NCBI GenBank assembly: GCA_049515655.1 | Contig: JBEKTW010000005.1 | Location: 22,721 to 86,720, forward strand | DNA: 64,000 nucleotides | Source: Bacteroidota bacterium | GTDB taxonomy: Bacteria > Bacteroidota > Ignavibacteria > UBA10030 > SZUA-254 | Direction of reading: 5' to 3' | Shown here: in pieces, positions 378 through 64,000 of the stretch | How the letters are laid out: the number at the start of each line of letters is the position of its first letter | How positions within the stretch are numbered: position 1 is the first letter of the stretch | The notes under the pieces: generated by a model | Databases searched by the model: none | Seen by the model: the letters and a program-made list of their open reading frames with translations, nothing else | What the model was told of the DNA's origin: nothing | Translations under genes and position numbers: made by a program

Positions 378-1949
378 ATGAATAGTGACACAATGAATTA
401 CCGGATTGTTCTCTTACTCTCAGCCATCATGATCCTCTTCGGATCATCATCGCTCCTCGCCGGAGATGAGCAAGCAAGCGTTGTCGGCATGAGCATGGCC
501 CGGACTTTCGTCGCCTCTTCTCGCGGCCTGGAGGCGATCGGGACGAATCCCGCGAATCTTACCCTACCGTACAAGGGAAGAATCATCGAGTACATCCACA
601 GGACGGTGATGCACGATTCGGTCATCGTGACGAAGGATTCATCGGGAATCGAATCGGAGCAGACGATTTCCGTCACCCATGACACACTGATTGCCCAGCG
701 GAAAACTCCGCCCGCAGTGACGTTCCAGCTTCTCCCCTCTTTTGGACTCAACCTGCGGACGGACTTCGTCAATTACGACATCTACAACAACTACTTTACC
801 GGGGTTGACACCGGCGGGCCGAACAAAGTGTCAAGGCACTTGAGCGACGACGACAAGAACAGCGTCCTCGGCCTCTTTCCTTCCGGGATCGCCGAGACGC
901 ACGCTGACATTGACATACGTCTCTTCGGGCTCACAATTCACAACGATTTCCTCGGCGACATCGGTTTCACCGTGACCGACCGGGCGGCAATGAATTTTGA
1001 CCTGCCCCAGGATTACGTGCGGTTCTTCTTCTTCGGGCTGGATTCGGCTGGTTCAACGTATAACCTGAGCGGCACAAACGTCCGCGCATGGTACCTGCGC
1101 GAGTACGCCTTCAGCTACGCCCGCAGACTTGCGTTCGTTCCGATCAAGGATTTTTCCTTCGGATTCAGTGTTAAGGAGATTCAGGGATACGCGGTGGTCA
1201 CGACCGAGAAATACAACGCGACGTTTGGAAATCAGGTCGTCCGTGATGATTCCGGGAGGATCAGCAACTATATCCTGAACGGGAATTTTGATTTCAGAGT
1301 TTTGAGGGCACAGAGCGATAATTTCAACGAAAAGACGTCTTTCACCCCGTTCCCCACTCCTGCGGGGACCGGGATCGGCATTGACCTGGGCGTCAACGGC
1401 GAGGTAATGCGCGGGGTCAGGGCGGGCCTGAGCGTCATCGATATCGGTTCCATCAACTGGACGGCAAACACGAAACAGCTCATCGCAACCACTGCCATTC
1501 ACATGACAAACCCGACATCGAGCGATCAAACCGACAGCTTGAAGACGGCCTTCAAAGGCAAGGATACACTGGCCGACGCTTTTTCGACACCTTTGCCCAC
1601 CTGTCTCCGGCTCGGCGCGGCGATCCAGGTGGACAATCTTCCGTTCATTTCGTGGTTTCCCGGTCAATGGCTGATAGCATGCGAGTATCTGCAAGGATTC
1701 AATGATTCACCGGGCAATTCAAAGCGGGCTCGATTTTCGTTCGGGACGGAGTACCGCCCTGTTTCGTTCCTGCCACTACGAACGGGCGTCTCTTTTGGCG
1801 GTATCGATCGGTTCAACTGGGCGGGAGGATTCGGGTTGGATTTCGGAGTGCTCAACTGGAACTTCGGAACGGAAAATATCGGTTTGATTCTCACGCCGCA
1901 CAGCTACCAGCAAGCCTCCTTCGGCATGAGCATGGTGTGGACAATCTAA
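378..1949 (+). CDS. hypothetical secreted or outer-membrane protein with an N-terminal signal peptide
   Basis: 523 aa ORF. The N-terminus MNYRIVLLLSAIMILFGSSSLLAG looks like a signal peptide. The protein is rich in Gly, Asn, Phe and Tyr in a beta-strand-like pattern. No specific family was recognised. Confidence 0.55.
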   Translation: MNSDTMNYRIVLLLSAIMILFGSSSLLAGDEQASVVGMSMARTFVASSRGLEAIGTNPANLTLPYKGRIIEYIHRTVMHDSVIVTKDSSGIESEQTISVTHDTLIAQRKTPPAVTFQLLPSFGLNLRTDFVNYDIYNNYFTGVDTGGPNKVSRHLSDDDKNSVLGLFPSGIAETHADIDIRLFGLTIHNDFLGDIGFTVTDRAAMNFDLPQDYVRFFFFGLDSAGSTYNLSGTNVRAWYLREYAFSYARRLAFVPIKDFSFGFSVKEIQGYAVVTTEKYNATFGNQVVRDDSGRISNYILNGNFDFRVLRAQSDNFNEKTSFTPFPTPAGTGIGIDLGVNGEVMRGVRAGLSVIDIGSINWTANTKQLIATTAIHMTNPTSSDQTDSLKTAFKGKDTLADAFSTPLPTCLRLGAAIQVDNLPFISWFPGQWLIACEYLQGFNDSPGNSKRARFSFGTEYRPVSFLPLRTGVSFGGIDRFNWAGGFGLDFGVLNWNFGTENIGLILTPHSYQQASFGMSMVWTI

Positions 1950-1994: not shown

Positions 1995-3386
1995 TCACAG
2001 AATATATTTGCTCAAATCCCTGTCCTTCACTATCCCGCTGAGCTTTTCCTCAACCATTTCTTTCGTCACCGATATCGATTTCCCCGCGTACTTGTCCGGT
2101 GAGTTAAAAAGGACTTCTTCCAGCACGGTCGTCAATATGGTATGGAGGCGGCGCGCACCGATATTCTCAACCTGCTCGTTGACCTGAGTCGCGATCCGGG
2201 CGACTTCACGAATTCCTTCCGGCGTGAACTCGAGATTCACACCTTCCGTTTCCAACAATGCAACATACTGTTTGATGAGCGCGGCTTGGGGCAGGGTGAG
2301 GATTTTCACAAAATCATCCTCCGACAGGCTGTTGAGCTCGACACGAATCGGGAACCGTCCCTGGAGCTCGGGAATCAGGTCGGACGGCTTCGTATTATGG
2401 AACGCCCCGGAGGCGATGAACAGAATGTGGTCCGTTTTCACCATGCCGTATTTCGTCAGGACGTTTGAACCTTCGACGATCGGCAGAAGGTCGCGCTGAA
2501 CCCCTTCACGGGAGACATCGGGCCCGGCGGATTGGCCCGTGGAACTGGCAATCTTGTCGATCTCGTCGATGAACACGATTCCTGCGTTCTCAACGCGATT
2601 GAGCGCGTCCTTGACCACCGCGTCCATATCGATAAGTTTGTCGGCTTCTTCCTGCGCCAGGACGACGCGCGCTTCGGCAACGCTCATCTTTCGCTTCTTG
2701 GTCCGCTTCGGCAGCATGTTGCCGAAAATCTCCTGGATGTTAATGCCCATCTCCTCAACGCTCAACGGCCCGAGAACCTGCATCGTGGGCATCTGGCTCG
2801 CCGCGATGTCGACCTCAATCGTCCGTTCCTCAAGTTCTCCCGCGCGCAGTTTTTCCCTGAATTTCTCACGCGTCGCATTTGCTTCGTCCGTCTCATTCAC
2901 AATTTCTGCAGTTCCTTCAACGCCCGCGTTCTGACGGCGCCTCAGCGGCGGTATGAGAATATCCAGGATCCGGTCCTCCGCCAACCGCGCGGCTTTGTCC
3001 CGGATCTCCGTGGCTTGCTCGGCCTTCACCATGTTAACCGCAAACTCGGTCAAATCTCTGATCATCGATTCGACGTCTCTTCCGACGTAGCCGACTTCGG
3101 TGAATTTCGAGGCCTCGACTTTGATAAACGGCGCATCGACGAGTCTCGCGAGGCGGCGCGCTATTTCCGTTTTCCCGACGCCCGTCGGACCAATCAGGAT
3201 AATGTTGTTTGGCATGATCTCTTCCCGGAGATTCTCGGACGTCTGCAATCGGCGCCAGCGATTTCGGATCGCGATAGCAACCGATTTCTTGGCGGCTTGC
3301 TGACCGATGATATAGCGGTCAAGCTCCCGCACGATCTCCCGGGGCGTCAATTCGTGCTTAGGTTCTTTTTTTGTCTTTTTGTTCAT
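1995..3386 (-). CDS. hslU: ATP-dependent protease ATPase subunit HslU
   Basis: 463 aa with a Walker A motif [15 protein letters not shown] and an AAA+ ClpX-like layout throughout. It lies downstream of hslV. Confidence 0.95.
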
Positions 3387-3404
3387 TCTAGCAATTTCAA
3401 AGCA

Positions 3405-3723
3405 AGAGCATGGTACTTGGTTCTTGGTTCTTAGTTATTAGTTCTTGGTTATTTGTTATTTGTCATTAGTCACTGGTCATTTGTCATTGGTCATTGGTTC
3501 TTGCTTCTGGCTTCTAGCTTTTAGCTGTTGGCTTTTGGTTCTTAGTTGTCAGTTCGTTGTCATTGTTCATTAATCATTGGTCATTATTCACTACTACATA
3601 GCTACATAACTACTCAACTACCTAACTACTCCATCTCACCGCTTCACCCCATCTCCCCTTCATCATCTTAACTACTTAACTATTCAACCACCTAACCACT
3701 CAACTACCGAACTACCTAACTAC
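3405..3723 (-). repeat. copy 1 of a purine-rich, stop-codon-dense intergenic repeat family that fills the hslV-hslU gap in sense orientation
   Basis: The reverse complement of 3405-3723 aligns with 18293-18633 and partly with 48090-48346. Shared blocks are gtagttaggtagttgagtagttatgtagctatgtagtagtgaataatgaccaatgattaatgaacaa..., ctaagaaccaaaagccaacagctaaa and ggggtgaagcggtgag. The sense strand almost lacks C in one section and T in another. Confidence 0.8.
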
Positions 3724-4272
3724 TCAACTACTTATTTCCAAATCCTCCACCACAATATTCTTGTTCGTATAAATGCAAATCTCGCTCGCTGCCGCCAGTG
3801 ACTCCGCCACAATCTCCTTTGCCGAGAGGTCGGTATGCTTCACCAGCATCCGGGCGGCGGCCAGGGCATAACTGCCTCCCGAACCTATTGCGACAATACC
3901 GTCATCGGGCTCGATGACTTCACCGGTACCGGAGATGATGAGTGCTTGTTCTTTGTTGACGACCGCAAGGAGGGCTTCGAGATGCCGGAGGTATTTATCC
4001 GTGCGCCATGCCTTTGCCAGCTCGACCGCCGCGCGCAGCAGGTTACCGTGGTACTGCTGGAGGCGGTCTTCGAACCGCTCGAACAGCGTAAACGCGTCCG
4101 CAGCGGCGCCGGCAAATCCCGCGAGCACCGAATCGTTGTAGATCTTTCTGATTTTTCTGGCATGCTGCTTCATAATCGTCGTACCGACGGTGACCTGGCC
4201 GTCGCCGCCGATGACGGCATGCCCCTTGTGCCTCAACCCGAGAACGGTCGTTGAACGTATGATATTTGGCAT
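3724..4272 (-). CDS. hslV: ATP-dependent protease subunit HslV
   Basis: 182 aa. The N-terminal [23 protein letters not shown] matches the HslV Ntn-hydrolase signature. Confidence 0.95.
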
Positions 4273-9327: not shown

Positions 9328-9702
9328 GACGACGACTTTCGGGAGTAGTGGAGTATTGGATTATTGGAGTGTTGCATATTCTGCCGATAAATGTAGCAAA
9401 GATGGGCATGAGAAGCAAGAAAAGAAGGTAATTTCAGGTAGTGGATCAATTTGGTCTGCCGTTATATCTCAGACCGACATGGCAGGGGAACGACGACATT
9501 ACGTCCCCTCTTGCCGAAGGCATCTCTCGGGACGAGAGGGGACTATAGGGGTGTGTTGATGACCGATCGCATTCTGTGTATGTAAGTGAGAGTGATGTGT
9601 CATCCCCAGTTACCCACCCCGTCGACTTCGTCGACACCCCTCCAAGGAGGGGACTTCCCTTTCCCCGCAGTTCAAAGTGAGTCAGTACCGATTCTTTGGA
9701 TT

Positions 9703-9924: not shown

Positions 9925-10350
9925 TCAGGTATGAGGAAGATATTTCTTGAGTTCCGCATAGAGTTGTTTTTCGGCTGGCAGGAGGGTCACGTGCGTACTG
10001 CGAGCTATTGCTATGCTTCGGTTCGCTCCAGTTTCCCTCATGTTAACGACACGTATGTAAGACAGAGGCTGCAGAACAGTCTCTAAATCCTCAGTTTTCC
10101 AATGCAGTGCGTCGCATAGTTTTTTCTGTTGTGCTTGCTTGTTTTTGGTAATTTCAAGAGCGTCCATAATACCTGCCTCAAGACATCCTTTGGACGCGGC
10201 GTACTCCAAGAAATCTCGCTCCCGCAAAACCGATGGCTTCCCTTTTTCTACAACTGTAAACGTTGGCGGCTTATCAGATAGTACGGGTTCTGACCGACCG
10301 ACTTCAATTCCCTTCCTCTGCAGACAAATCATGATTTCGCTGAAATTCAT
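9925..10350 (-). CDS. hypothetical protein (island cassette 1)
   Basis: 141 aa ORF in the low-GC island. No family was recognised. Confidence 0.45.
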   Translation of the reverse strand: MNFSEIMICLQRKGIEVGRSEPVLSDKPPTFTVVEKGKPSVLRERDFLEYAASKGCLEAGIMDALEITKNKQAQQKKLCDALHWKTEDLETVLQPLSYIRVVNMRETGANRSIAIARSTHVTLLPAEKQLYAELKKYLPHT

Positions 10351-10424
10351 TTGCGTTCTCCTTTGTCGTTACGAGGTCTTTTCTGATTCGCTCACTATAT
10401 ATTGTGAACTGAATAAACTTACTC

Positions 10425-10530
10425 AAACAAACGGTGAAATTCAAATTCATTAAAAGGCCGGGCCAGTGATTGAATCAAACGAGGGCATTACAGTTAAAAG
10501 CCAGACGTTTTCGGCCCGGCCTTTCATTGC
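10425..10530 (+). repeat. cassette repeat b, a degenerate copy of the gene-remnant plus hairpin unit
   Basis: It carries attcaaattcattaa and cagtgattgaatc, embedded in the ggccgggcc...ggcccggcc hairpin. Confidence 0.6.
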
Positions 10531-10594
10531 GATGTTTCCTGTACTAGGATGGCTTCAACTGAGGGTCATGGTTGATTCTTCCTTAACTGTTTTC

Positions 10595-12668: not shown

Positions 12669-12766
12669 GAAGCACTCACTTCCTCAGTCATTCTTGAATC
12701 GTCACGGCCAGCGAATTTTGTGTGTGCTGGTCGCCCTAAAGTCTGGCCAAAGTCGTCGCTACGTCG

Positions 12767-16304: not shown

Positions 16305-17228
16305 ATGCCATCTTCAAAGTATCCCAGGGTGTCTATTATCGGGGCGGGCAGTGTCGGCTCTTCACTCGCCCGTGTGTTGCATGAAACCGGCTACACGATT
16401 GTCTCGGTCATCAGCAGGTCGGGGCGCCCGGCCCTGGCGCTGGCAAGAGCCGTCAAATGCAAGAAAGCCGGCACCGTCGTCGAGGATATTTCGCCGCTCA
16501 CCGAACTTATCATCATCGCCACTCCCGATGGTTCTGTCGCCGAAGTCGCGAAAGGACTCTCACGGTTGAAGAAATTGAAGGTCAAGAAGTTGTTCGTGGC
16601 GCACACGTCCGGCGTCCTCTCCGCCGACGTGCTGGAACCTCTCAAACGTAAAGGCGCAATCGTCTCGTCGATACATCCGATACAATCCTTCACTTCGGCC
16701 GGGCGGACAAAGCTCAAAGGAATTTATTTCGGCCTCGAAGGCGATCCAAAAGCTGTCGCCAGAGCCGAACAACTCGTGAACTCTATCGGCGGGAAGTCAA
16801 TTACCGTTCCGCGCGACCTCAAACCGCTCTACCATGTCGCGTGCGTTTTTGCTTCCGGGTACATGGTGGTTTTCCTGAACGCCATCAGCGAGCTTGCGAA
16901 ATGCCTGGATCTGAAGGCGTCATGGACGGAAGTCTTCGGCCCGCTGATGACGACGGCAATGGAAAACTCCGTGAAACATACCACGGCGAGTGCCCTCACC
17001 GGTCCGATCCTCAGGGGAGATCTGGCAACCGTCGATTGCCACCTCCTTGCATTGTCGAAACACGCGCCGGAGTTCCTGCCGCTCTATACTATCGGCGGCA
17101 TTGAAGTAGCACGAATAGCAAAAGACCACGGTAGAATCGGCCGGCAGGAGTATGAAGGCATCATTTCTCGATTCAGAAAATTCATTCAGACCTCACCGAT
17201 CAAGCACAATTCAAGGGGAAAACATTGA
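16305..17228 (+). CDS. Rossmann-fold NAD(P)-binding protein with a DUF2520-like C-terminal domain (ProC/ketopantoate-reductase-like)
   Basis: The N-terminal VSIIGAGSVGSSLA is a GxGxxG dinucleotide-binding motif. Confidence 0.65.
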   Translation: MPSSKYPRVSIIGAGSVGSSLARVLHETGYTIVSVISRSGRPALALARAVKCKKAGTVVEDISPLTELIIIATPDGSVAEVAKGLSRLKKLKVKKLFVAHTSGVLSADVLEPLKRKGAIVSSIHPIQSFTSAGRTKLKGIYFGLEGDPKAVARAEQLVNSIGGKSITVPRDLKPLYHVACVFASGYMVVFLNAISELAKCLDLKASWTEVFGPLMTTAMENSVKHTTASALTGPILRGDLATVDCHLLALSKHAPEFLPLYTIGGIEVARIAKDHGRIGRQEYEGIISRFRKFIQTSPIKHNSRGKH

Positions 17229-18292
17229 AGGCTCTTATTGCCAGCGGCGGTCGCGGCACACGGCTGCGGCCCCTGACGCACACACAAAACAAACATCTCA
17301 TCCCGATCGCAAATAAACCGATTCTCCATTACGCCATCGAGGCAGCGGTCGAGGCGGGCATTCGACAAATCGGCATCATCCACAATGCCGACAGCGACGA
17401 AGTCCCCAAGGCCATCGGGAACGGCAAGAAGTGGGGAGCAAAGATAACCTACATCCCCCAGACGGCCCCGCTCGGCCTGGCGCATGTCGTTAAAATCTCG
17501 AAGAAGTTCATCGGCAAAGAAAATTTCATCTTCTATCTTGGCGACAACATGGTGGTCGGTGGAATAAAACGATTCATCGACGACTTCGAGAAAAGCGGCT
17601 GCAATTGTTTCCTTACGCTGGCCAAAGTGAAAGACCCGGAACGGTTTGGCGTCCCGGAGATCAGGAACGGCAAGATCGTGCGTGTCGAAGAAAAACCGAA
17701 AAAGCCAAAGAGTCAATTCGCCGTGGCGGGAATCTACATTTACGATAAGAATATTTTTGAAGCCGTGAGTAGGATCAAACCGAGCAAACGCGGCGAGCTT
17801 GAAATTTCCGATGCGCACCAATACCTCATCGACAAGGGGCTGAAGGTCGGTTACAGCGAAATCACCGGGTGGTGGAAAGATACGGGCAAACCGACCGACT
17901 TGCTGGAAGCGAATCGCCTGGTGCTCGACAATATCGAGCCGCGCATCGAAGGCGAAGTGGACCCCTCTTCGACCGTCGCCGGCAAGGTCGTTCTCGAGCC
18001 CGGCTCGAGGATCCTGAGCAGCGTCGTCCGGGGTCCCGCCATTATCGGAAAGAACTGTGCGATCGAGAACAGCTACATTGGACCCTTCACGTCCATCGGG
18101 GACAACACGATCATCAGAAACTCGGAAGTGGAATACAGCATTTTGCTGCGCGATTGCAGGATCCTCGACGTGAAGATCAGGATCGAAGGCAGCCTGTTGG
18201 GAAACGAAGTTGAAATCGTTGAAGCGACCGGTAAGCCGCACGTCCATCGCTTTATGATAGGTGACCAGAGCCGGGTGGAAGTGGCGTGGTAA
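17225..18292 (+). CDS. sugar-phosphate nucleotidyltransferase (long-form glucose-1-phosphate thymidylyltransferase-like, with a C-terminal left-handed beta-helix)
   Basis: GGRGTRLRPLT matches the nucleotidyltransferase signature GGxGTRLxPLT. The C-terminus has hexapeptide repeats. 355 aa. Confidence 0.8.
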   Translation: MKALIASGGRGTRLRPLTHTQNKHLIPIANKPILHYAIEAAVEAGIRQIGIIHNADSDEVPKAIGNGKKWGAKITYIPQTAPLGLAHVVKISKKFIGKENFIFYLGDNMVVGGIKRFIDDFEKSGCNCFLTLAKVKDPERFGVPEIRNGKIVRVEEKPKKPKSQFAVAGIYIYDKNIFEAVSRIKPSKRGELEISDAHQYLIDKGLKVGYSEITGWWKDTGKPTDLLEANRLVLDNIEPRIEGEVDPSSTVAGKVVLEPGSRILSSVVRGPAIIGKNCAIENSYIGPFTSIGDNTIIRNSEVEYSILLRDCRILDVKIRIEGSLLGNEVEIVEATGKPHVHRFMIGDQSRVEVAW

Positions 18293-18635
18293 GTACGTTG
18301 GTAGTTAGATAGTTGAATAGTTATGTAGCTATGTAGTAGTGAATAATGACCAATGATTAATGAACAATTACAACGAACTGACAACTAAGAACCAAAAGCC
18401 AACAGCTAAAGGCTAGAAGCCAGAAGTCAGAATCCAGAAGCAAGAAGCCAAGAGCTAATGGCCAACAGCTAAAAGCTAATAGCTCAAGGCCATAACCAGG
18501 AACAAATGACAAAGAACCAATAACTAATAAGCTAAAAGCTAAAGGCCAACAGCTAATGGCTAAAGGCTCGATGCCAGAACCAACGACGAATGACCAATGA
18601 CAAATGACTAATGACCAACAACCAACAATCAGGCA
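18293..18635 (+). repeat. copy 2 of the purine-rich intergenic repeat family, running from the stop codon to the start codon
   Basis: See copy 1. It ends ...caaccaacaatcaggcaATGacc, where the ATG is the start codon of the next gene at 18636. Confidence 0.8.
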
Positions 18636-19418
18636 ATGACCTATTCGACCTTACTCGTGAAAGTCACCGACCGTATCGCAGTTGTGACTGTCAACCGTCC
18701 CGACAAGCTGAACGCCCTGAACGCCCAGTGCAAGAACGAGCTCAGGGACCTCTTCATGTCGCTCAAGACCAATCACGACGTTGATGCGGTCATCCTGACA
18801 GGCGCCGGCGAGAAGTCGTTTGTCGCGGGAACCGACATCAGCGAATTGGCAACTCTCAATGCCGAAACCGGGAAAGAGTTTGCCAGCGGAGGGCAATCCC
18901 TCTTCGACCTCATCCAGCATCTTGGAAAACCGGTCATCGCCGCCGTGAACGGCTACGCCCTGGGCGGCGGCTGCGAGCTCGCGCTGGCTTGTCATATGAG
19001 AATCGCATCGGAGAACGCGAAGTTCGGCCAGCCGGAGGTGAGTCTTGGGATCATCCCGGGCTACGGGGGAACGCAGCGGCTTTCGCGGCTTGTCGGTTCC
19101 GGCAAGGCGGCGGAGTTGATTCTCACAGGAAACCAAATCGATGCTCAGGAAGCCCTGCGCATCGGACTAGTCAACAGAGTTGTTCCGCAAAAAGAATTGC
19201 TCGCGGCGGCCGAAGCCATCGCACGGACAATCACGAGCAAAGGTCAGATCGCAATTCGTATCGCGCTGAAAGCCATCAACGCGAGCATGGAAATGCCGCT
19301 CAGCGAGGGCCTGAAGGTCGAAGCTTCACTTTTCGGCGACTGCTGCAGCACGCAAGACGCCAAAGAGGGTGTGAAAGCCTTCCTTGAAAAACGAAAGCCG
19401 GAGTTTAAAGGGAAATGA
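18636..19418 (+). CDS. enoyl-CoA hydratase/isomerase (crotonase family)
   Basis: AAVNGYALGGGCELALACHMRIAS is the crotonase oxyanion-hole motif. 260 aa. Confidence 0.85.
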   Translation: MTYSTLLVKVTDRIAVVTVNRPDKLNALNAQCKNELRDLFMSLKTNHDVDAVILTGAGEKSFVAGTDISELATLNAETGKEFASGGQSLFDLIQHLGKPVIAAVNGYALGGGCELALACHMRIASENAKFGQPEVSLGIIPGYGGTQRLSRLVGSGKAAELILTGNQIDAQEALRIGLVNRVVPQKELLAAAEAIARTITSKGQIAIRIALKAINASMEMPLSEGLKVEASLFGDCCSTQDAKEGVKAFLEKRKPEFKGK

Positions 19419-28453: not shown

Positions 28454-28494
28454 GTCGCGGACCTCATGCAGTTCGTGGAATTGAATCTTTCGGC

Positions 28495-28590
28495 TGTTTA
28501 CCCTGACCCCTTTCCCCTCTCCCGAACCTGTCCTGAGCGAAGTCGAAGGAGCGGGAGAGGGGAATCGAAGGGGTGAGGGTTGTGATTGTG
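28495..28590 (+). repeat. palindromic intergenic repeat (cccctttcccctctcccg ... tgtcctgagcgaagtcgaagga ... cgggagaggggaa)
   Basis: The inverted arms flank the same core found at 23775-23800. Confidence 0.6.
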
Positions 28591-47411: not shown

Positions 47412-48089
47412 ATGGTCGTTACGAACATCGAACGCCAGAAGCGCCGTCCAAAGAGAGTGAATGTTTACATCGACGGCGAATTTGCCGTCGGACTGCACGA
47501 AGATGTACTCTTTAAGTTCGGTTTACGCAAGGGAGACAACGTCGACCGCGAAACCCTGGTCAGCATCGAATCAGCGGAGGAATCCCATTTTGCAAAAGAA
47601 AAAGCTCTGAGGTTCATCGGGTATCGCTCCCGCAGCGAGAAAGAGCTGCGCTCGAAGCTTCGTGAAAAGCAATTTCACCCGCAGGTAATCGAAGATACCG
47701 TCCGTTATCTCAGGGAAAATCGTTTTCTCGACGATGAGGCATTCGCCCGTTCGTTCGTGAAGGACGCACTCCTGCGAAAACCCACGGGACGGCTTCTCCT
47801 GCGACGGCAGCTTCGTCTAAAAGGCATTGACACCGGGATAATCGAGGAGGTACTCGACGAGCTTGTTCCACAGCACGATGAAGACACGCTTGCGATCGAG
47901 GCGGCATCGACTCTTCTGAAGCGGTTCCGGGCGTCACGAAAGAAAATTGACCGGGAGAAACAACGCGCGCGCCTTGCGAGTTTGCTTGCGCGAAGAGGAT
48001 TCGGATGGCCAACCATCCATGCCGTCCTGAGAAGAGTTCTTAAACCCGGTGCCCAGACCTCCGACGAGGATGAAGGGGTGAATCGGTGA
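47412..48089 (+). CDS. recX: regulatory protein RecX
   Basis: A helical-repeat protein lying immediately downstream of recA. 225 aa. Confidence 0.8.
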   Translation: MVVTNIERQKRRPKRVNVYIDGEFAVGLHEDVLFKFGLRKGDNVDRETLVSIESAEESHFAKEKALRFIGYRSRSEKELRSKLREKQFHPQVIEDTVRYLRENRFLDDEAFARSFVKDALLRKPTGRLLLRRQLRLKGIDTGIIEEVLDELVPQHDEDTLAIEAASTLLKRFRASRKKIDREKQRARLASLLARRGFGWPTIHAVLRRVLKPGAQTSDEDEGVNR

Positions 48090-48346
48090 GTGAGGGAAAC
48101 GGGGAATGGAGTAATGGATGGATGGAGTGATGGAGGATTGAGGTGATAGAGTAGTTGGGATGATGAATGGGAGAAGGGGTGAAGCGGTGAGTGGGAGAAG
48201 CCAACGGCCAAGAGCCAAGAGCTAAAGGCTAAAGGCCAATGGCTAGGAGCACGAAGCAGGATGCAAGAACCAGTGACTAATGAGCAATGACCAATGACAA
48301 AGAACTAGCAACAAAGAACCAATAACCAAGAACCAGCAACCAGGTA
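48090..48346 (+). repeat. copy 3 of the purine-rich intergenic repeat family, running from the stop codon to the start codon
   Basis: It shares ggggtgaagcggtgag, aatgaccaatgacaaaga and aaccaagaacca with copies 1 and 2. It ends 2 nt before the ATG at 48347. Confidence 0.75.
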
Positions 48347-49027
48347 TTGACGATGTCACATGTCGTTTTCGATATCGAAACCCTCGGCTTTCCCATCGAA
48401 TCGTTCGATGAGGTCCAACAGGAGTACTTGCTAAAATTCGCGGATTCGGACGAGAAGCGGGAAACGGAGATTCAGAAACTCAATTTGTATCCCCTGACCG
48501 CGCAGATCATCGCAATCGGGATGCTGAATCCCGAAACCAACGCCGGCAAAGTCTTCTACCAGGCAGATGTCTCCGAACAGTTCTCCTCCGACGACGGCAA
48601 GGTCGAATTCGTCTCGGGCGATGAACAGCAAGTCCTGAAGCTCTTCTGGGAAAGTGTCCAGCGCTACGACCAGTTTATCACGTTCAACGGCCGGTCTTTC
48701 GACTGTCCGTTTCTCATGCTGCGCTCTGCCATCGCAGGGATCAAACCGACACGCAACCTCCTTCCCTACCGGTACGACGCGGCCATCCACTGCGACCTCC
48801 TGGAACAGCTTACGTTTTACGGGGCGTTCAGGAAATTCAATCTGGACTTCTATTGCAAGGCCTTCGGGATCAAAAGTCCAAAGAGCGAGGGGATCACCGG
48901 ACTCGGCCTCGGACCACTCTTTCGCGAAGGCAAGTTCAGGGAAATTGCAAAGTACTGCCTTGGAGATATCCAGGCGACTGCTGAGTTGTTCCGGCGGTGG
49001 GAGAAGTTCCTTAATGTTAAGAATTGA
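48347..49027 (+). CDS. predicted RNase H-like 3'-5' exonuclease (related to the PolB exonuclease domain, COG3298-like)
   Basis: VVFDIETLG at the N-terminus, with further acidic motifs downstream. 226 aa. Confidence 0.65.
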   Translation: MTMSHVVFDIETLGFPIESFDEVQQEYLLKFADSDEKRETEIQKLNLYPLTAQIIAIGMLNPETNAGKVFYQADVSEQFSSDDGKVEFVSGDEQQVLKLFWESVQRYDQFITFNGRSFDCPFLMLRSAIAGIKPTRNLLPYRYDAAIHCDLLEQLTFYGAFRKFNLDFYCKAFGIKSPKSEGITGLGLGPLFREGKFREIAKYCLGDIQATAELFRRWEKFLNVKN

Positions 49028-49039
49028 ATAGCCCATCGT

Positions 49040-49140
49040 AGATCTGGGAGGTTTCAGGTTCGAGGTTTCAGGTTGCAGGTTACAGGATATAGGTGTCAGG
49101 TTGCATTGTCAGCAAAAATTTTTGCTTTTTAATTTTTAAT
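49040..49140 (+). repeat. tandem hexamer (caggtt) tract, followed by an AT-rich palindrome agcaaaaatttttgct and three copies of ttttaatt
   Basis: gtttcaggttcgaggtttcaggttgcaggttacagg...gtcaggttgc. The reverse complement resembles the aacc(a/t)g motifs of the purine-rich repeat family. Confidence 0.6.
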
Positions 49141-49172
49141 TTTTAATTATCGCATGCCATTACCGGATTGTT

Positions 49173-51030: not shown

Positions 51031-51064
51031 TGACCGAAGAATTTAAACAAATGGTAATCTTATA

Positions 51065-51440
51065 ATCATGCGAATCATGGTTCGAACAACGGCGGCATCA
51101 CCGAAACCGTCTGAACCTTGATTTTGGGGATTATAGGATTTCCATGATTGTTTAATCGCGGTAGTCTCACGATCATGCGAATCATGGTTCAGACAACGAC
51201 GGTATCACTGAAACTGTCTGAACCTTGATTTTGAGGATTATAGGATTTCCATGATTGTTTAATCACGGTAATTTCATAATTATGTGAATCACGGTGCAGA
51301 CAACGACAGTATAACCGAGACTGTCTGAACCTTGATTTTGGGGATTAAAGGATGACCATGATTTTGTAATCAAGGTAATCTTATAATCATGCGAATCACG
51401 GTTCAGACAATGGATCCCGCTTGCTTCCCTCCTCACAACT
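51065..51440 (+). repeat. three and a half tandem copies of the ~107-bp hairpin repeat, immediately upstream of (and overlapping) the 5' end of the next gene
   Basis: Unit starts fall at about 51065, 51172, 51280 and 51386, a period of 106-108 bp. Each unit contains ggttcagaca...tgtctgaacc, gattttggggattataggatttccatgattgtttaatc and cggtaatct. Confidence 0.85.
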
Positions 51441-59107: not shown

Positions 59108-60637
59108 ATGAAATTCGAACGCTCAGCAGGAATCCTCCTCCACCCCACGTCGCTTCCCGGAAAGTTTGGAATTGGTGACATGGGAGCCGAGGCATTCAGG
59201 TTTGTTGACTTCCTGGAAGCGGCGGGACAGAAACTGTGGCAGGTTCTTCCTCTCGGTCCCACAGGTTATGGCGATTCACCCTATCAGACATTCTCCGCGT
59301 TTGCCGGAAATCCGCTCCTCGTGAGCCCTGAAAAGCTGACAGAGGATGGCCTTCTCGATCGCGAGGACTGCGACAGCGTACCGGATTCTGACCCGAAATG
59401 CGTCGACTTCGGGAGAGTTATCGGATACAAGATGGAACTGCTGAAAAGGGCATTTCAGAACTTCAAAACAAGAGCCGTTCACGACCGATCAGTAGCTTTC
59501 AAGAACTTCTGCACGGTCAACAAAAACTGGCTTGAGGATTATTCCACGTTCATGGCCCTCAAAGACCAGCATGGCGGAAAACACTGGGCACAGTGGGAAC
59601 CGGCGCTCGTTGCGCGGAAACAATCAGCCATTCACGACGCCGTACGGAAACACTCAGACGACATCATGTTTTACAAATTTGTCCAGTTCATCTTTTTCAA
59701 GCAATGGAATGAACTGAAGTCGTACGCGAACGGCAAGGGCATGAAGGTAGTCGGCGATTTGTCGATCTTCGTCGCCTATGACAGCGCCGACGTCTGGGCG
59801 AACAAGGACCTTTTCGACATCGACAAGGACGGGATTCTCCTGACGAAGGCAGGCGTGCCGCCGGATTACTTCAGTCCGACGGGACAACTATGGGGCAATC
59901 CGCTCTATCGGTGGGACGCGATGTCAAATGGGGATTTCCTGTGGTGGCGAAGCAGAATCTCGAAACTCCTGGAGCTCGTGGATATTATTCGCATCGACCA
60001 TTTCCGGGGATTCGACGCCTACTGGGAAATTCCCGGCGATGCCCCGACGGCTGAGAAAGGCCGCTGGGTCAAGAGTCCCGGCAAGAAGTTTTTTTCGACG
60101 GTCAAGAAACACCTGGGGGAATTGCCGATCATTGCGGAAGATTTAGGACTCATTACTAAATCTGTCAGGGCGTTGAGAGATGAATTTGATTTCCCCGGGA
60201 TGAAGATTCTCCAGTTCGCTTTCGGGACAGGCATGGAACGAAGATTTCTGCCGCATAATCTTGAGGCAAACTGCGTTGTGTATACCGGTTCACACGACAA
60301 CGATACCACACGGGGGTATTTTGAGAAAGCAAAACGCGACCACAACGATGTTTTTGCATCAGCCCAACGATATTTGAATTACCTCGGGAACGACATGCGC
60401 ATGGAGCTTATCCGCGCAGCTTACGCTACGGTCGCAAACACCGTTATTATTCCGATGCAGGACGTTTTGAATCTTGGTACGGAGGCACGGATGAATTTCC
60501 CCGGAAAGCTCGGCGGCAATTGGACATGGCGATTCACGTGGGATCAAATCTCCCCTTCGCTTGCAGGTGAGTTGAGGAGTCTGGCCGAGCTGTATGACCG
60601 GCCCCCGAAGCCCCAGCCCCCGGAAATCTCAATTTGA
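59108..60637 (+). CDS. malQ: 4-alpha-glucanotransferase (amylomaltase, GH77)
   Basis: The N-terminus SAGILLHPTSLPGKFGIGDMG is typical of MalQ. 509 aa. Confidence 0.9.
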   Translation: MKFERSAGILLHPTSLPGKFGIGDMGAEAFRFVDFLEAAGQKLWQVLPLGPTGYGDSPYQTFSAFAGNPLLVSPEKLTEDGLLDREDCDSVPDSDPKCVDFGRVIGYKMELLKRAFQNFKTRAVHDRSVAFKNFCTVNKNWLEDYSTFMALKDQHGGKHWAQWEPALVARKQSAIHDAVRKHSDDIMFYKFVQFIFFKQWNELKSYANGKGMKVVGDLSIFVAYDSADVWANKDLFDIDKDGILLTKAGVPPDYFSPTGQLWGNPLYRWDAMSNGDFLWWRSRISKLLELVDIIRIDHFRGFDAYWEIPGDAPTAEKGRWVKSPGKKFFSTVKKHLGELPIIAEDLGLITKSVRALRDEFDFPGMKILQFAFGTGMERRFLPHNLEANCVVYTGSHDNDTTRGYFEKAKRDHNDVFASAQRYLNYLGNDMRMELIRAAYATVANTVIIPMQDVLNLGTEARMNFPGKLGGNWTWRFTWDQISPSLAGELRSLAELYDRPPKPQPPEISI

Positions 60638-60677
60638 ATCGAAGCCCGGCCCTTTCATCATCACGACCACTCCGGAA

Positions 60678-62744
60678 ATGAGTACGATCGTCACCGATTC
60701 CGCATCTTCCCGGCCGTCTTCCTACGAGAGTTCCCACTCCAAACTTTTTGATTCCCTCTCTTCGAGCAAGGAGCTTGGCTGCACCGTCGAAAAGAAACGA
60801 ACGACGTTTCGCGTCTTTGCTCCCAGGGCTACGGGGGTTCAACTGGTTCTATTTGAGAAATACGATGACGAGAATGGTGAAGAGTTCGCCATGAAGCGAG
60901 ACCGCGACGGCGTTTGGAGCCATGTTATTCCAAAGAACCTCACGGGAACATTGTACGGCTACCGCGTCAGCGGCCCTGCGGGCAAAGGAGAAATGTTCGA
61001 CGACCGCGTTATCATCGGCGACCCGTACGCGAGAGCAGTCGTCACCAGGAACAATTATCACCACCCGGCGAAAACTCTCATCCTTGACACTTCGTACGAC
61101 TGGGAAGGCGATACCTTCGTGATTCCCCCGGACCATAACCGGCTCATCATTTACGAAGCCCACGTTCGCGACCTTACTGCCCACCCCTCGTCGGGAATCT
61201 CCGCACGGGGAACGTATCTCGGGCTGACGAAACAGGGCCAAACCGGCGGCATGTCGTATCTGAAGGATCTTGGAATCAATGCGATCGAGCTCATGCCTGT
61301 GCAGAAATTCGGCAACATAGAAATTCCTTTCCGCGATAAGACCGTTATCAACGAAGAGGGAGAATACAATACGTGGAATCCGTACTCGCGGAATCATTGG
61401 GGATATATGACGAGTTACTATTTCACTCCGGAGACCTACTACGCGACAGATGGGACAATGGAGCCGGCCAGGTATAACGGAATCGACGGGCGGGCCGTCG
61501 GAGAATTCAAGGATATGGTGAAGGCATTTCACCGTGAAGGCATCTCGGTGATACTGGATGTGGTGTTCAATCATACCTCCCAATACGATTACAATCCGTT
61601 CAAGTACATCGACAAATTCTACTATTACCACATTGATTCATCGGGCAGGTTCATGAAGAACTCCGGGTGTGGAAATGATTTCCGCACCGACCGGCCGATG
61701 TCACGACGGATGATCGTCGATTGCATCAAGTACTGGATGGCGGAATATCACATTGATGGATTCAGGTTCGATATTGCGACGATGATCGACCGTGAAACGT
61801 GCAAGGAGATTGCGGCCGAGGCGAAAATAATCAATCCCTCTGTTGCGCTCATTGCCGAGCCGTGGGGAGGCGGAAAATGGGACCCACCGGGATTCAGCGA
61901 CATTGGTTGGGCGGCATGGAACGACTGGTTCCGCAACAGCGTGAAAGGGCAAAACCCCGCGACGAACTTAGGCTTTATTTTTGGAAAACTTCAGGGAAGG
62001 AACACAACAAAATCTTTCATGAGCGCTTTGACCGGCACCCTGCGGGAAGACGGCGGCTTGTTCCTGAAAAAAGAGCATTCCATCAATTACCTTGAGTCGC
62101 ACGACAACTACACGTTGGGCGATTTTGTCCGCCTGGGTCTGGGCGACGCACAGGTGAACCAGGTCATTACCGATGTCGAATCCTTCGTTCGCCTCACGCC
62201 GCAGCAACTCGCGCTCCATAAACTCGCTGCGCTTTTTCTTTTGACTTCCCAGGGACCCGTCATGATACACGAGGGACAGGAATTCGCCCGCAGCAAAGTT
62301 ATTTCCCCTACCCCCGCTCCGGATCCGAAGGTCGGGATGTTGGATCACAATAGTTACGAAAAGGACAACGCGACAAATTACTTGAACTACACGCATCGGG
62401 AAATCAATCGCGAGTTGTATGACTACTACAAAGGATTAATTGAGCTGCGGCGACACCATTCGATTTTCGGGAGCGCGCCAAAGCGGGCACTGAAGTTCCT
62501 GGAAACGAAAGACGAATTTCTCATCGCCTTCAAATTGGGCCCGGAAAAATCTTTGAAGGAAGACAAAAGTTTTGTTGTGCTTCTCAACGGCAATCCGAAA
62601 CAATCCTTTGAGTTCGCTCCCCCCGATGGACGATGGACGATTGTTGCGAACGCGAATGGCGTCGCCTTGGACGGCAGGCTGGGAACCGCCTCCGGAAAAA
62701 TTGTCATCCCCGCGACGTCGGGTGTGATTCTGATGGAGGAGTAA
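60678..62744 (+). CDS. pullulanase-type alpha-1,6-glucosidase (GH13; glycogen debranching)
   Basis: HIDGFRFDIATMI, EPWGGG and YLESHDN are GH13 regions II to IV. The start was set at 60678 to avoid overlapping malQ. Confidence 0.8.
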   Translation: MSTIVTDSASSRPSSYESSHSKLFDSLSSSKELGCTVEKKRTTFRVFAPRATGVQLVLFEKYDDENGEEFAMKRDRDGVWSHVIPKNLTGTLYGYRVSGPAGKGEMFDDRVIIGDPYARAVVTRNNYHHPAKTLILDTSYDWEGDTFVIPPDHNRLIIYEAHVRDLTAHPSSGISARGTYLGLTKQGQTGGMSYLKDLGINAIELMPVQKFGNIEIPFRDKTVINEEGEYNTWNPYSRNHWGYMTSYYFTPETYYATDGTMEPARYNGIDGRAVGEFKDMVKAFHREGISVILDVVFNHTSQYDYNPFKYIDKFYYYHIDSSGRFMKNSGCGNDFRTDRPMSRRMIVDCIKYWMAEYHIDGFRFDIATMIDRETCKEIAAEAKIINPSVALIAEPWGGGKWDPPGFSDIGWAAWNDWFRNSVKGQNPATNLGFIFGKLQGRNTTKSFMSALTGTLREDGGLFLKKEHSINYLESHDNYTLGDFVRLGLGDAQVNQVITDVESFVRLTPQQLALHKLAALFLLTSQGPVMIHEGQEFARSKVISPTPAPDPKVGMLDHNSYEKDNATNYLNYTHREINRELYDYYKGLIELRRHHSIFGSAPKRALKFLETKDEFLIAFKLGPEKSLKEDKSFVVLLNGNPKQSFEFAPPDGRWTIVANANGVALDGRLGTASGKIVIPATSGVILMEE

Positions 62745-62749
62745 GGGCT

Positions 62750-64000
62750 TCAGCAGTACATCAAACCCACATACTTTTTGGCGCTTGCCTTCCACGTAAA
62801 CCGCGCTCGCGCGGCTTCCTCCTGGAAGCTCTTCCATAATTGCGGGTCCCCGACGCATATCTTGACCGCGCGCTCGACCGTCTGGACGAAGTTTTCCGCC
62901 TTCTCCTTGACGCTTCTTCCCGAAAAGCTGAAACCGTTCATGTTGTCGATGACGGTATCGCGCAAACCTCCGACTCGGTGGACTACGCAGGGCTGTCCCT
63001 CACGCATCGCCAGCATCTGACTGATTCCACAGGGTTCAAAGATGCTTGGCATGAGGAAGAGCGTTCCGTTCGCATACAGTGCCTCCGCGACCGAGCTGGA
63101 ATAGCCGTTGATGAAAATGAATCGCTCATGGCGTTTGAATACCTCGGAGAGCTTGTGTCCAAACTCCGGAGTTCCGGTTCCCAGAACGATGTAGAGTCCG
63201 CCGTATTCCTCAAGTTTGTCGAGAATTTTGTCCAACGCAGTCCCGGCCCTTCCGGTCTTCGCCAACATCAGCCGCACTTTTTGTTCCACAATTCTCGTAA
63301 CACTCGTGAGGACAACCTTCGGCACATCGGCCTTGAACCGGTCGATCCGGCGCAGCACTTCGGCCAACATTGGAATTTGCTCTTTGTCGTTCTGCCTTGT
63401 GAATTCACGCTTGATGAGATCACACAATTCACCGAATGATTTCTTCGGCGGATCGGAATTCCCATAGTCGCATCCGTTCAGGATCCCGAACAAGCGCTGC
63501 CGGTCCTTGACACCCTGAAGCAGATCTTCAAGACCGTCACCTCCGTGAAAACCGACGGCGGGATCGCCTGGCTTCAGTATTTCTTCCGCGTAATTCGGCG
63601 AGACCGTATTGATCGCGTCGGAACAGCGAATGCCGACGGCCATCGGCGTGTAGCACGGCACCTCGTACCGATGGTCCTTCCAACTTGCCACCCAGGATTG
63701 ATTCCTGAACAATTCGGGGAACCAGCTCTCCATGGACGACTCATCGCCCTGCATGGGCCTGGTTCCCTGAATTGCAAGATTATGAATCGTGAAGATGGTC
63801 TTCACACCCCTCATGTGATAGAAATCTTCATGGAGTTCTCTGAGCAACAGAAGTGTCGCGGCATGCCAATCGTGGAGATGAAGAATATAGGGAGTTTTGA
63901 TCGTTTTCAGGAAAACACCGACTGCGGAACAGAAGAGAGCGTACTTCGTCGCGTCGCGCCGGAAGGGCGTCTCAGGAGGGTCGTTCACATAGATGGGTTC
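62750..64000 (-). CDS. glgA: glycogen synthase (GlgA), partial; the N-terminus lies beyond the window end
   Basis: C-terminal GT-B motifs are present (HRVGGLRDTVID, FINGYSSSVAEALYANG). The usual KTGGL N-terminus is missing. Confidence 0.85.
   Translation of the reverse strand, partial: EPIYVNDPPETPFRRDATKYALFCSAVGVFLKTIKTPYILHLHDWHAATLLLLRELHEDFYHMRGVKTIFTIHNLAIQGTRPMQGDESSMESWFPELFRNQSWVASWKDHRYEVPCYTPMAVGIRCSDAINTVSPNYAEEILKPGDPAVGFHGGDGLEDLLQGVKDRQRLFGILNGCDYGNSDPPKKSFGELCDLIKREFTRQNDKEQIPMLAEVLRRIDRFKADVPKVVLTSVTRIVEQKVRLMLAKTGRAGTALDKILDKLEEYGGLYIVLGTGTPEFGHKLSEVFKRHERFIFINGYSSSVAEALYANGTLFLMPSIFEPCGISQMLAMREGQPCVVHRVGGLRDTVIDNMNGFSFSGRSVKEKAENFVQTVERAVKICVGDPQLWKSFQEEAARARFTWKASAKKYVGLMYC

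Follow-up and report, generated by a model that had tools for sequence, protein, structure and literature searches.

What fills the 337 bp between hslV and hslU in an Ignavibacteria-like bacterium, and does the operon have any use for it? The question is raised by a 64,000-nucleotide (nt) stretch of contig JBEKTW010000005.1 (the window), where the peptidase subunit gene hslV (3724-4272, minus strand; 182 aa; NCBIfam NF003964, 280 bits) and the ATPase subunit gene hslU (1995-3386, minus strand; 463 aa; NCBIfam TIGR00390, 646 bits) are separated by a compound tandem-repeat element, E1, that makes up the entire spacer (3387-3723, minus strand). Judged from its sequence, E1 is an Ignavibacteria-lineage member of the heptanucleotide simple-sequence-repeat class. 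On balance it is probably tolerated, recombining simple-sequence DNA, carried in operon transcripts without a dedicated function.

The repeat character of the spacer is evident from two measures. Arrays of period 7, 8, 14, 21 and 24 found by Tandem Repeats Finder (TRF) cover 3411-3734. Identity at a 7-nt lag is 0.54 in E1, and 0.61 and 0.56 in two sister copies elsewhere in the window, compared with 0.20-0.32 (about 0.25) in the window's non-array spacers of at least 90 bp. An earlier, sequence-only reading of this DNA had held that a repeat element splits hslV from hslU, and these results bear that out. The array begins directly after the hslV TAA and stops about 25 nt short of the hslU ATG. 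The 5' block of the sense strand (3595-3723) contains 2.3% C, in keeping with the earlier description of one nearly C-free block, and stop codons are indeed dense in all sense frames (12, 17 and 18 per frame, with 6, 3 and 6 on the antisense strand). Two further points of that description hold in weaker form: the 3' block (3405-3594) is T-poor but not nearly T-free (14.7% T), and the sense strand has a purine excess, but a moderate one (64% overall).

Read along the minus strand from hslV toward hslU, E1 is an ordered series of parts. It opens with a first octamer run of about seven C-free GTAGTTNR units (3670-3723; TRF period 8 and 24 at 3667-3734). This is followed by module B (AAGATGATGAAGGGGAGATGGGGTGAAGCGGTGAGATGGAG, 3629-3669), which is also found in the sister copy E3 and in the rmlA-ech copy of the related locus L129, and by a second GTAGTTNR run (3607-3628). 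Module C (TGTAGCTATGTAGTAGTGAATAATGACCAATGATTAATGAACAATGACAACGAACTGACAACTAAGAACC, 3537-3606) consists of 70 nt of imperfect units and is near-identical in E2, L001 and L123 by alignment, BLAST and longest common substrings. After it come about 18 heptamers. Parsed units of the GCY class (AAAAGCC, AACAGCT, AAAAGCT, AGAAGCC) occupy 3503-3536, and TRF and unit parsing place TGAC-class units (AATGACC, AATGACA) and then AAC-class units (AATAACC, AAGAACC) at 3412-3502. A non-repeat tail (3387-3411) precedes the hslU ATG; it is conserved in all array-bearing relatives and is likely the translation-initiation region. At the other border, HslV in the window ends in EDLEI*, two residues beyond the EEL* of array-free relatives. 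HslV of array-bearing genomes was in general seen to be one to two residues longer.

Sister copies and related lineages

Two more copies are present in the window, both on the plus strand and both homologous to E1 by alignment and BLAST. E2 (18293-18635) lies between the long-form rmlA (17225-18292) and the enoyl-CoA hydratase gene ech (18636-19418), and carries an internal duplication of 84 nt. E3 (48090-48352) lies between recX (47412-48089) and a gene for a 224-aa exonuclease-like protein whose ATG at 48353 is conserved among relatives. TRF finds period-7/8 arrays at 18318-18628 and 48105-48340. Each of the three elements is non-coding and lies in the interval from one gene's stop codon to the start codon of the following gene, and the final heptamers stop 25 (E1), 5 (E2) and about 10 (E3) nt before the ATG. 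The further copies at 18293 and 48090 noticed in the sequence-only reading are thus real, homologous, in sense orientation and placed stop-to-start.

The same architecture recurs in these three and in the copies of relatives. On the sense strand the first part consists of C-free GTAGTTNR octamers (GGAGTRRT-like in E3). In composite copies the octamers are followed by module B (GATGATGAAGGGGAGATGGGGTGAAGCGGTGAG) or the related module D (GAGATAATGAGAAAGACGGGTAATGGCG), both G-rich and non-tandem, and by optional further pieces. Heptamers then follow in the same order in all composite copies: the GCY class (AAAAGCC, AACAGCT, AGAAGCC), the TGAC class (AATGACC, AATGACA), and the AAC class (AAGAACC, AATAACC, AACAACY), which always adjoins the start codon. 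Parsing gave 218 heptamer units with the consensus A-R-N-R-R-C-H, in which positions 1, 5 and 6 were fixed by the parsing rule; exact AATGACC accounts for 15 of the 218. Because E1, E2 and E3 align and share module order, they are diverged versions of one composite element rather than three separate local expansions. The earlier idea of a discrete repeat family with fixed polarity, placed stop-to-start in operon-type spacers, is supported.

The border of E3 with recX shows a further detail. The last five to six recX codons (48066-48089, GAT GAA GGG GTG AAT CGG TGA) resemble the units GATGAAGG GGTGAATC GGTGAGTG and may be array-derived. The recX of the relative L134 ends differently (...SADE*), and the array may have given the window's recX its C-terminal residues and stop codon.

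For HslV, Ech and RecX the nearest homologues carry the names Ignavibacteriae, Ignavibacteriales or Bacteroidota. The window was compared with two related lineages at about 89-92% DNA identity in their genes: a 570-kb contig (ERZ25039480 contig_68336; loci L124, L128 and L133) and a population from sample 3300027896, taken jointly with an ENA contig (L123, L129 and L134). Arrays are present at all three spacers in all three lineages, giving nine composite copies, all sense and all stop-to-start; at the rmlA-ech site the relatives' arrays are those of L128 and L129. Spacer length varies. Array-bearing hslV-hslU spacers range from 256 bp in L123 to 490 bp in L124, with 276 bp in L001 and 337 bp in the window. 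L001 encodes an HslV identical to that of the window, yet its spacer is shorter.

More distant relatives were compared at the hslV-hslU and ech-upstream sites, where gene order is kept. The hslV-hslU spacer of L125 (HslV 88% identical) is 37 bp with no array, and that of L126 and L127 (HslV 82% identical) is 5 bp with no array. Upstream of ech, L130 (Ech 80% identical) has 35 bp and no array. Given arrays in three lineages of about 90% identity and none at two sites in distant relatives, the family is a recent, lineage-restricted gain in the ancestor of a narrow clade. The array is also dispensable for hslVU, since 5-37 bp are all that separates hslV from hslU in relatives that keep this gene order. 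A dedicated transcribed spacer or leader, as the sequence-only reading proposed, is accordingly not something the operon requires. No lineage-specific new array site was found in about 150 kb of lineage sequence. A module C scan of metagenomes gave one locus only, the composite array is absent from L132 (a locus reached via the open reading frame (ORF) at 60594-62744), and a look-up with ORF 62750-63988 for rightward neighbours had no match on record.

The arrays differ by units and by blocks. For example, when aligned with E1, the L001 array has a two-unit insertion of 14 nt and lacks a block of 86 nt. Paralogous pairs are often more alike than orthologous copies. Module C is common to E1 and E2 of the window, and in the 570-kb genome a T-rich piece (CATTTTTTAATTTTTCATTTTTAATTTTGAATT) is common to the hslVU and rmlA-ech copies, while a module 'GACGGGTGGTGGCAG...GAGATTATGAGATGCGCC' is common to the hslVU and recX copies. 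Such unit and module differences, together with modules shared among paralogs, suggest that the arrays change by unit slippage plus ectopic exchange between copies, i.e., by concerted evolution.

The closest pair of all joins different loci in different genomes. Over 215 nt, E2 (18310-18524) matches the hslVU array of L123 (about 10350-10565) at 98.6% identity, and 151 nt is the longest substring that the two have in common; identity in the flanking genes is 89-92%. The borders of this segment fall inside repeat units. Recent transfer, gene conversion, sequence constraint or mis-threading during assembly may account for an identity above the gene level. Mis-threading seems unlikely, because the rmlA-ech array of L129, from the same population as L123, is not E2-like.

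Orientation is less uniform than the composite copies suggest. The common sense orientation proposed earlier applies at the three ancestral sites, where its chance probability is 0.125, thin evidence for a rule, and does not extend to short simple arrays of the lineage, which lie opposite. One of these (49048-49148, plus strand; conserved in L133 and L134) consists of G/T-rich heptamers (AGGTTTC, 49048-49102), a hairpin with a T-run, and TTTTTAA heptamers, its units oriented opposite to the A/C-rich heptamers of E1-E3. A mini-array of four GGAGTATT octamers adjoins the phosphoglucomutase start (9342-9374, plus strand), is antisense to that gene, and is conserved in L124, L128 and L129. L132 has an antisense run of GCY-class heptamers at 17692-17730. 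Within the first of these arrays, the hairpin (GCAAAAATTTTTGC) and T-run at 49106-49148 look like an intrinsic terminator set between the G/T-rich and the TTTTTAA heptamers, and are kept in L133 and L134.

Heptamer repeats in other organisms

The class to which E1 belongs has already been described, as heptanucleotide simple-sequence repeats, STRR and TAACTGA repeats (PMC4679880, PMC4692102), so the suggestion of a novel or dedicated element finds no support. What appears particular to the E1 family is the build from octamers plus heptamers and the conserved module order. Among long simple sequence repeats of bacteria heptanucleotide units dominate, and polymerase slippage has been proposed as their origin (Mrazek et al. 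2007, as summarised in PMC4679880). In the accounts of PMC4679880 and PMC4692102, these repeats have units of 5-11 nt, are intergenic and taxonomically patchy, and vary between close relatives. E1 is of this kind, with head-to-tail 7/8-nt units in non-coding DNA and a 14-nt (two-unit) difference to L001. The likeness lies in tandem 7-nt units, strongly intergenic placement and length that varies between close relatives. E1 departs from the pattern in its highly degenerate units, in having octamers, heptamers and non-tandem modules in a fixed order, and in forming homologous dispersed composites.

The cyanobacterial STRR units, as given by Mazel and colleagues in 1990, are reportedly CCCCAGT (STRR1), TTGGTCA (STRR2) and CAACAGT (STRR3). 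Tandem AATGACC contains TGACCAA, the reverse complement of STRR2, so that the unit is that of STRR2 with strand and register changed. Scores of Nostocales loci match a 20-mer taken from the array. The host here, in contrast, is Ignavibacteria-like and not a heterocystous cyanobacterium, and most units of the E1 family are other variants. The cyanobacterial loci are also about random in orientation (31 sense to 29 antisense; this and the other such counts below are among the loci listed by the scan described below), whereas E1-E3 are all sense.

TAACTGA repeats have been found in Beggiatoaceae, Cyanobacteria and Bacteroidetes, where they lie 'forward' just upstream of start codons and have stops in all forward frames (MacGregor 2015, PMC4679880). 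Strain differences come in 7-nt steps. In Gramella and Aequorivita the repeat is part of long composite spacers, close relatives having short, repeat-free ones, and in Elizabethkingia near-identical composite TAACTGA spacers occur at two loci (PMC4679880). E1-E3 share the sense orientation, the last units 5-25 nt before the start codon, stops in all frames and differences in 7-nt steps. Short array-free spacers in relatives and mixed heptamers in Bacteroidetes spacers are further points in common. Tandem TAACTGA itself is absent from E1, which has only related units such as TAACTAA, one mismatch away, and GAACTGA. Unlike the TAACTGA repeats, E1-E3 fill the whole spacer from stop to start and have a block of octamers at the 5' end.

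Heptamer repeats of Xanthomonas and Nostoc are enriched in intergenic DNA and lie between the corresponding genes of related species, with varying length and sequence (PMC4692102). Shortly downstream of ORFs, the G-rich strand of the GGGAATC/GGGGAYT heptamers is the coding one, shortly upstream of them it is the non-coding one, and these units are G-quadruplex candidates (PMC4692102). Their polarity, G-rich and then C-rich, is like that of the present arrays, and the G/T-then-A/C pattern counted below agrees with it. Units of the E1 family differ in mostly lacking runs of three or more G, module B and E3 excepted. The BOX, REP/BIME and ERIC elements are dispersed, non-coding and modular, occur inside operons, are co-transcribed, vary in module number, and have inverted-repeat or stem-loop cores. 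The E1 family is likewise dispersed, non-coding and modular, but E1-E3 lack such cores, and their subunits are 7-8 nt as opposed to 35-150 nt. Translational roles via ribosomal protein S1, cold-shock proteins (Csp) or CsrA have only been proposed for heptamer repeats, and function has been established for none of these heptamer groups (PMC4679880; bioRxiv 10.1101/2022.06.06.494920).

A scan of genome collections with the array 20-mer returned at least 120 loci (L003-L122), most of them in Nostocales. Other hosts include Pirellulales, Acidobacteriota, Chloroflexota, Desulfobacterales, Methylomirabilota, Bacteroidota and further groups. The units AATGACC, AATGACA and AAGAACC recur in intergenic spacers of at least ten phyla, often exactly stop-to-start (L004, L007, L012, L022, L025, L027, L029, L037, L045, L066, L071, L085, L096, L116, others, and L135). 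For example, GAGTAGTT octamers are present in L071, a Desulfobacterales metagenome-assembled genome, and more than 35 pure AAGAACC units in the Caballeronia replicon L135 (1500-1735). BLAST against plasmids and phages gave only partial matches to the heptamer array.

Orientation of AATGACC-type arrays relative to co-directional genes follows no general sense rule: the near-equal cyanobacterial count is joined outside the cyanobacteria by 11 sense and 3 antisense, many of these being inverted pairs. Polarity is another matter. It was scored with arrays masked and oriented by stop-to-stop ORFs, which avoids a possible bias from the calling of ORF starts. All 27 two-part arrays in co-directional spacers run from G/T-rich to A/C-rich, and none runs the other way; of the uniform arrays, 19 are A/C-rich and 16 G/T-rich. 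E1-E3 have this polarity too, as does an array of L130 that is unrelated to them (588-720, minus strand). Being strand-symmetric, the polarity is not in itself evidence of a link to transcription.

What the array may do

Several specific roles were examined on the RNA and DNA level. At gathering score nothing in the window matched Rfam, nor was there a hit at E ≤ 1 over 3300-3800, and a structured RNA or riboswitch is rejected on this basis. Fold z-scores against dinucleotide shuffles are +2.26 for E1 (less structured than 99 of 100 shuffles), -2.87 for E2 and +0.16 for E3. The lack of sense-strand RNA structure supposed in the sequence-only reading is therefore not consistent among the three copies, and an unstructured leader is rejected as a property of the family. 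Pairing of the G/T-rich 5' block with the A/C-rich 3' block into one long hairpin is likewise rejected, since in eight of eight arrays the cofold gain was no better than that of within-block shuffles. No sigma-70 promoter and no sense-strand intrinsic terminator was found in any copy, and an internal promoter or terminator is rejected; one weak antisense terminator-like site was found in E2, and the Bacteroidetes-type TAnnTTTG motif is found in no array. Without such signals, co-transcription of the array with its flanking genes is plausible.

In the preferred account, in which E1 is tolerated simple-sequence DNA, units and modules would be gained and lost by replication slippage or unequal recombination, and sequence would be exchanged among dispersed copies by ectopic gene conversion. 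The array would be transcribed passively within the operon mRNA. With stop codons in all frames it should not itself be translatable, and the A-rich, G- and U-poor last units would leave the start region weakly structured in two of the three copies. Together these features would uncouple the translation of hslV and hslU without abolishing it. Selection would only filter the positions and orientations that are tolerated. A leader or protein-binding role of E1 is possible but unsupported.

A functional intercistronic leader is the first rival to consider, and a rather doubtful one. With its A/C-rich, G-poor 3' part the array would offer an unstructured standby or loading platform for Shine-Dalgarno-independent initiation at the downstream gene, the C-free, G-rich 5' part following the stop codon; loading might involve ribosomal protein S1 or proteins with cold-shock domains, whose oligonucleotide-binding (OB) folds contact roughly 6-7 nt. 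All composite copies being sense and stop-to-start, with AAC-class heptamers always next to the start codon, fits this. The minimum free energy (MFE) of the -40 to +23 region is weaker for hslU than for 94%, and for ech than for 98%, of 50 window genes, and Shine-Dalgarno-like 4-mers precede just 28% of window genes (16.5% background). A comparable role has been proposed for TAACTGA repeats (PMC4679880) and Nostoc heptamers (bioRxiv 10.1101/2022.06.06.494920). Yet relatives carry hslU behind 5-37 bp, the fold z-scores of whole elements disagree, and the start region after E3 does not stand out (62nd percentile). A standby site needs far less than 256-490 bp of rapidly changing sequence, and in cyanobacteria uniform arrays are about equally sense and antisense (31 to 29, and 19 to 16). 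A DNA-level role is considerably less probable. The array might be a platform for a nucleoid-associated or single-strand-binding protein, or a recombination or contingency locus that tunes expression by its length. Length does differ between strains with identical HslV, units recur across phyla, and the strand-symmetric 27-to-0 polarity in other phyla could reflect a property of DNA. The flanking genes are housekeeping genes (hslVU, rmlA, recX) with no phase-variable link, however, no candidate binding protein was identified, and with no promoter overlapping the array, promoter spacing cannot be tuned by the number of units.

Homologous copies dispersed at unrelated loci also bring to mind a non-autonomous mobile element, copied just past stop codons and possibly between genomes by a trans-acting enzyme or by recombination. 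Every copy begins at TAA or TGA followed by GT, and the rmlA-ech copy of the window is 98.6% identical over 215 nt to the hslVU copy of another genome, with genes near 90%. This explanation is nonetheless unlikely. There are no terminal inverted repeats in E1 or E3, and E2 has only one internal 15-nt pair of 80% complementarity, so that a miniature inverted-repeat transposable element (MITE) is rejected; the sequence-only reading had named a known insertion sequence or MITE as what would speak against its proposal, and on this count none was found. By eye, no flanking direct repeat (target-site duplication) is seen at the E1-E3 junctions, and the gene tables of neighbouring loci show no transposase or integrase gene adjoining any copy. 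The three sites are orthologous in all three lineages, pointing to three old insertions and not to ongoing transposition, and the 150 kb of lineage sequence holds no lineage-specific site. The borders of the 98.6% segment, lying inside units, fit gene conversion rather than a defined element end. That the array is an assembly artefact is scarcely credible. It was recovered at hslVU in the independent assemblies L002 and L131, whose short-read contigs both break inside it, and repeats shared by loci could be mis-threaded; but the array, correctly flanked on both sides, is present in JGI, ENA/NCBI and Logan assemblies from different samples.

Some observations weigh against the view of E1 as tolerated DNA without a function. 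All nine composite copies are sense and stop-to-start with conserved module order, and a neutral process does not obviously predict either. The identity of E2 with the L123 array, set beside genes at about 90%, is more in line with recent transfer or constraint than with drift. As the leader model predicts, few start regions in the window are less structured than those of hslU and ech (94th and 98th percentile). The recurrence of AATGACC, AATGACA, AAGAACC and GAGTAGTT in many phyla hints at a sequence-specific process or binding partner. There is accordingly a small chance that two-part arrays of 7-8-nt units are a widespread polar intercistronic module, G/T-rich after the stop and A/C-rich before the start, made or read by a conserved factor with a footprint of about 7 nt. 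The shared units would be AATGACM, AAGAACC and GAGTAGTT, and the candidate factors S1, cold-shock OB folds or the replicative polymerase; the arrays could then move between loci and genomes. In favour of this reading are the 27-to-0 polarity, the cross-phylum units and the 98.6% identity across genomes and loci.

The practical meaning is for annotation. A stop-dense, compositionally skewed spacer of 250-500 bp in a conserved Ignavibacteria-like operon should be taken for a compound heptamer/octamer array and not for a missing gene, regulatory RNA or mobile element, and short-read assemblies break there. An hslVU operon evidently tolerates that a large insert, and a fast-changing one, parts its two cistrons. 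Should the side observations prove right (the polarity, the cross-phylum units and copies more alike than their genes), they would offer a concrete, testable handle on the purpose of heptamer repeats.

Other repeats in the window and its relatives

Several other repeats were noticed. A 107-bp tandem unit with no relation to the heptamer arrays is present in 3.3 copies (85% matches) at 51053-51410 of the window, upstream of an ORF of 1108 aa; it is kept as 2.8 copies in a related genome (L134, 13360-13654). In the 570-kb genome a 63-bp tandem unit occurs in 4.4 copies (L128, 14879-15157; 93% matches), and TRF found none at the syntenic position of the window. In L133 (10001-10471) recX is called as just 156 aa and a run of 30 C is found at 12671-12700; these may be frameshift or homopolymer errors of assembly. 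Pieces of a G+C-rich palindrome, CCCCTCTCC...GGAGAGGGG, occur in intergenic spacers of the window (28490-28580 and 9500-9550) and of L129 (10930-11020), and may be a second, REP-like dispersed family.

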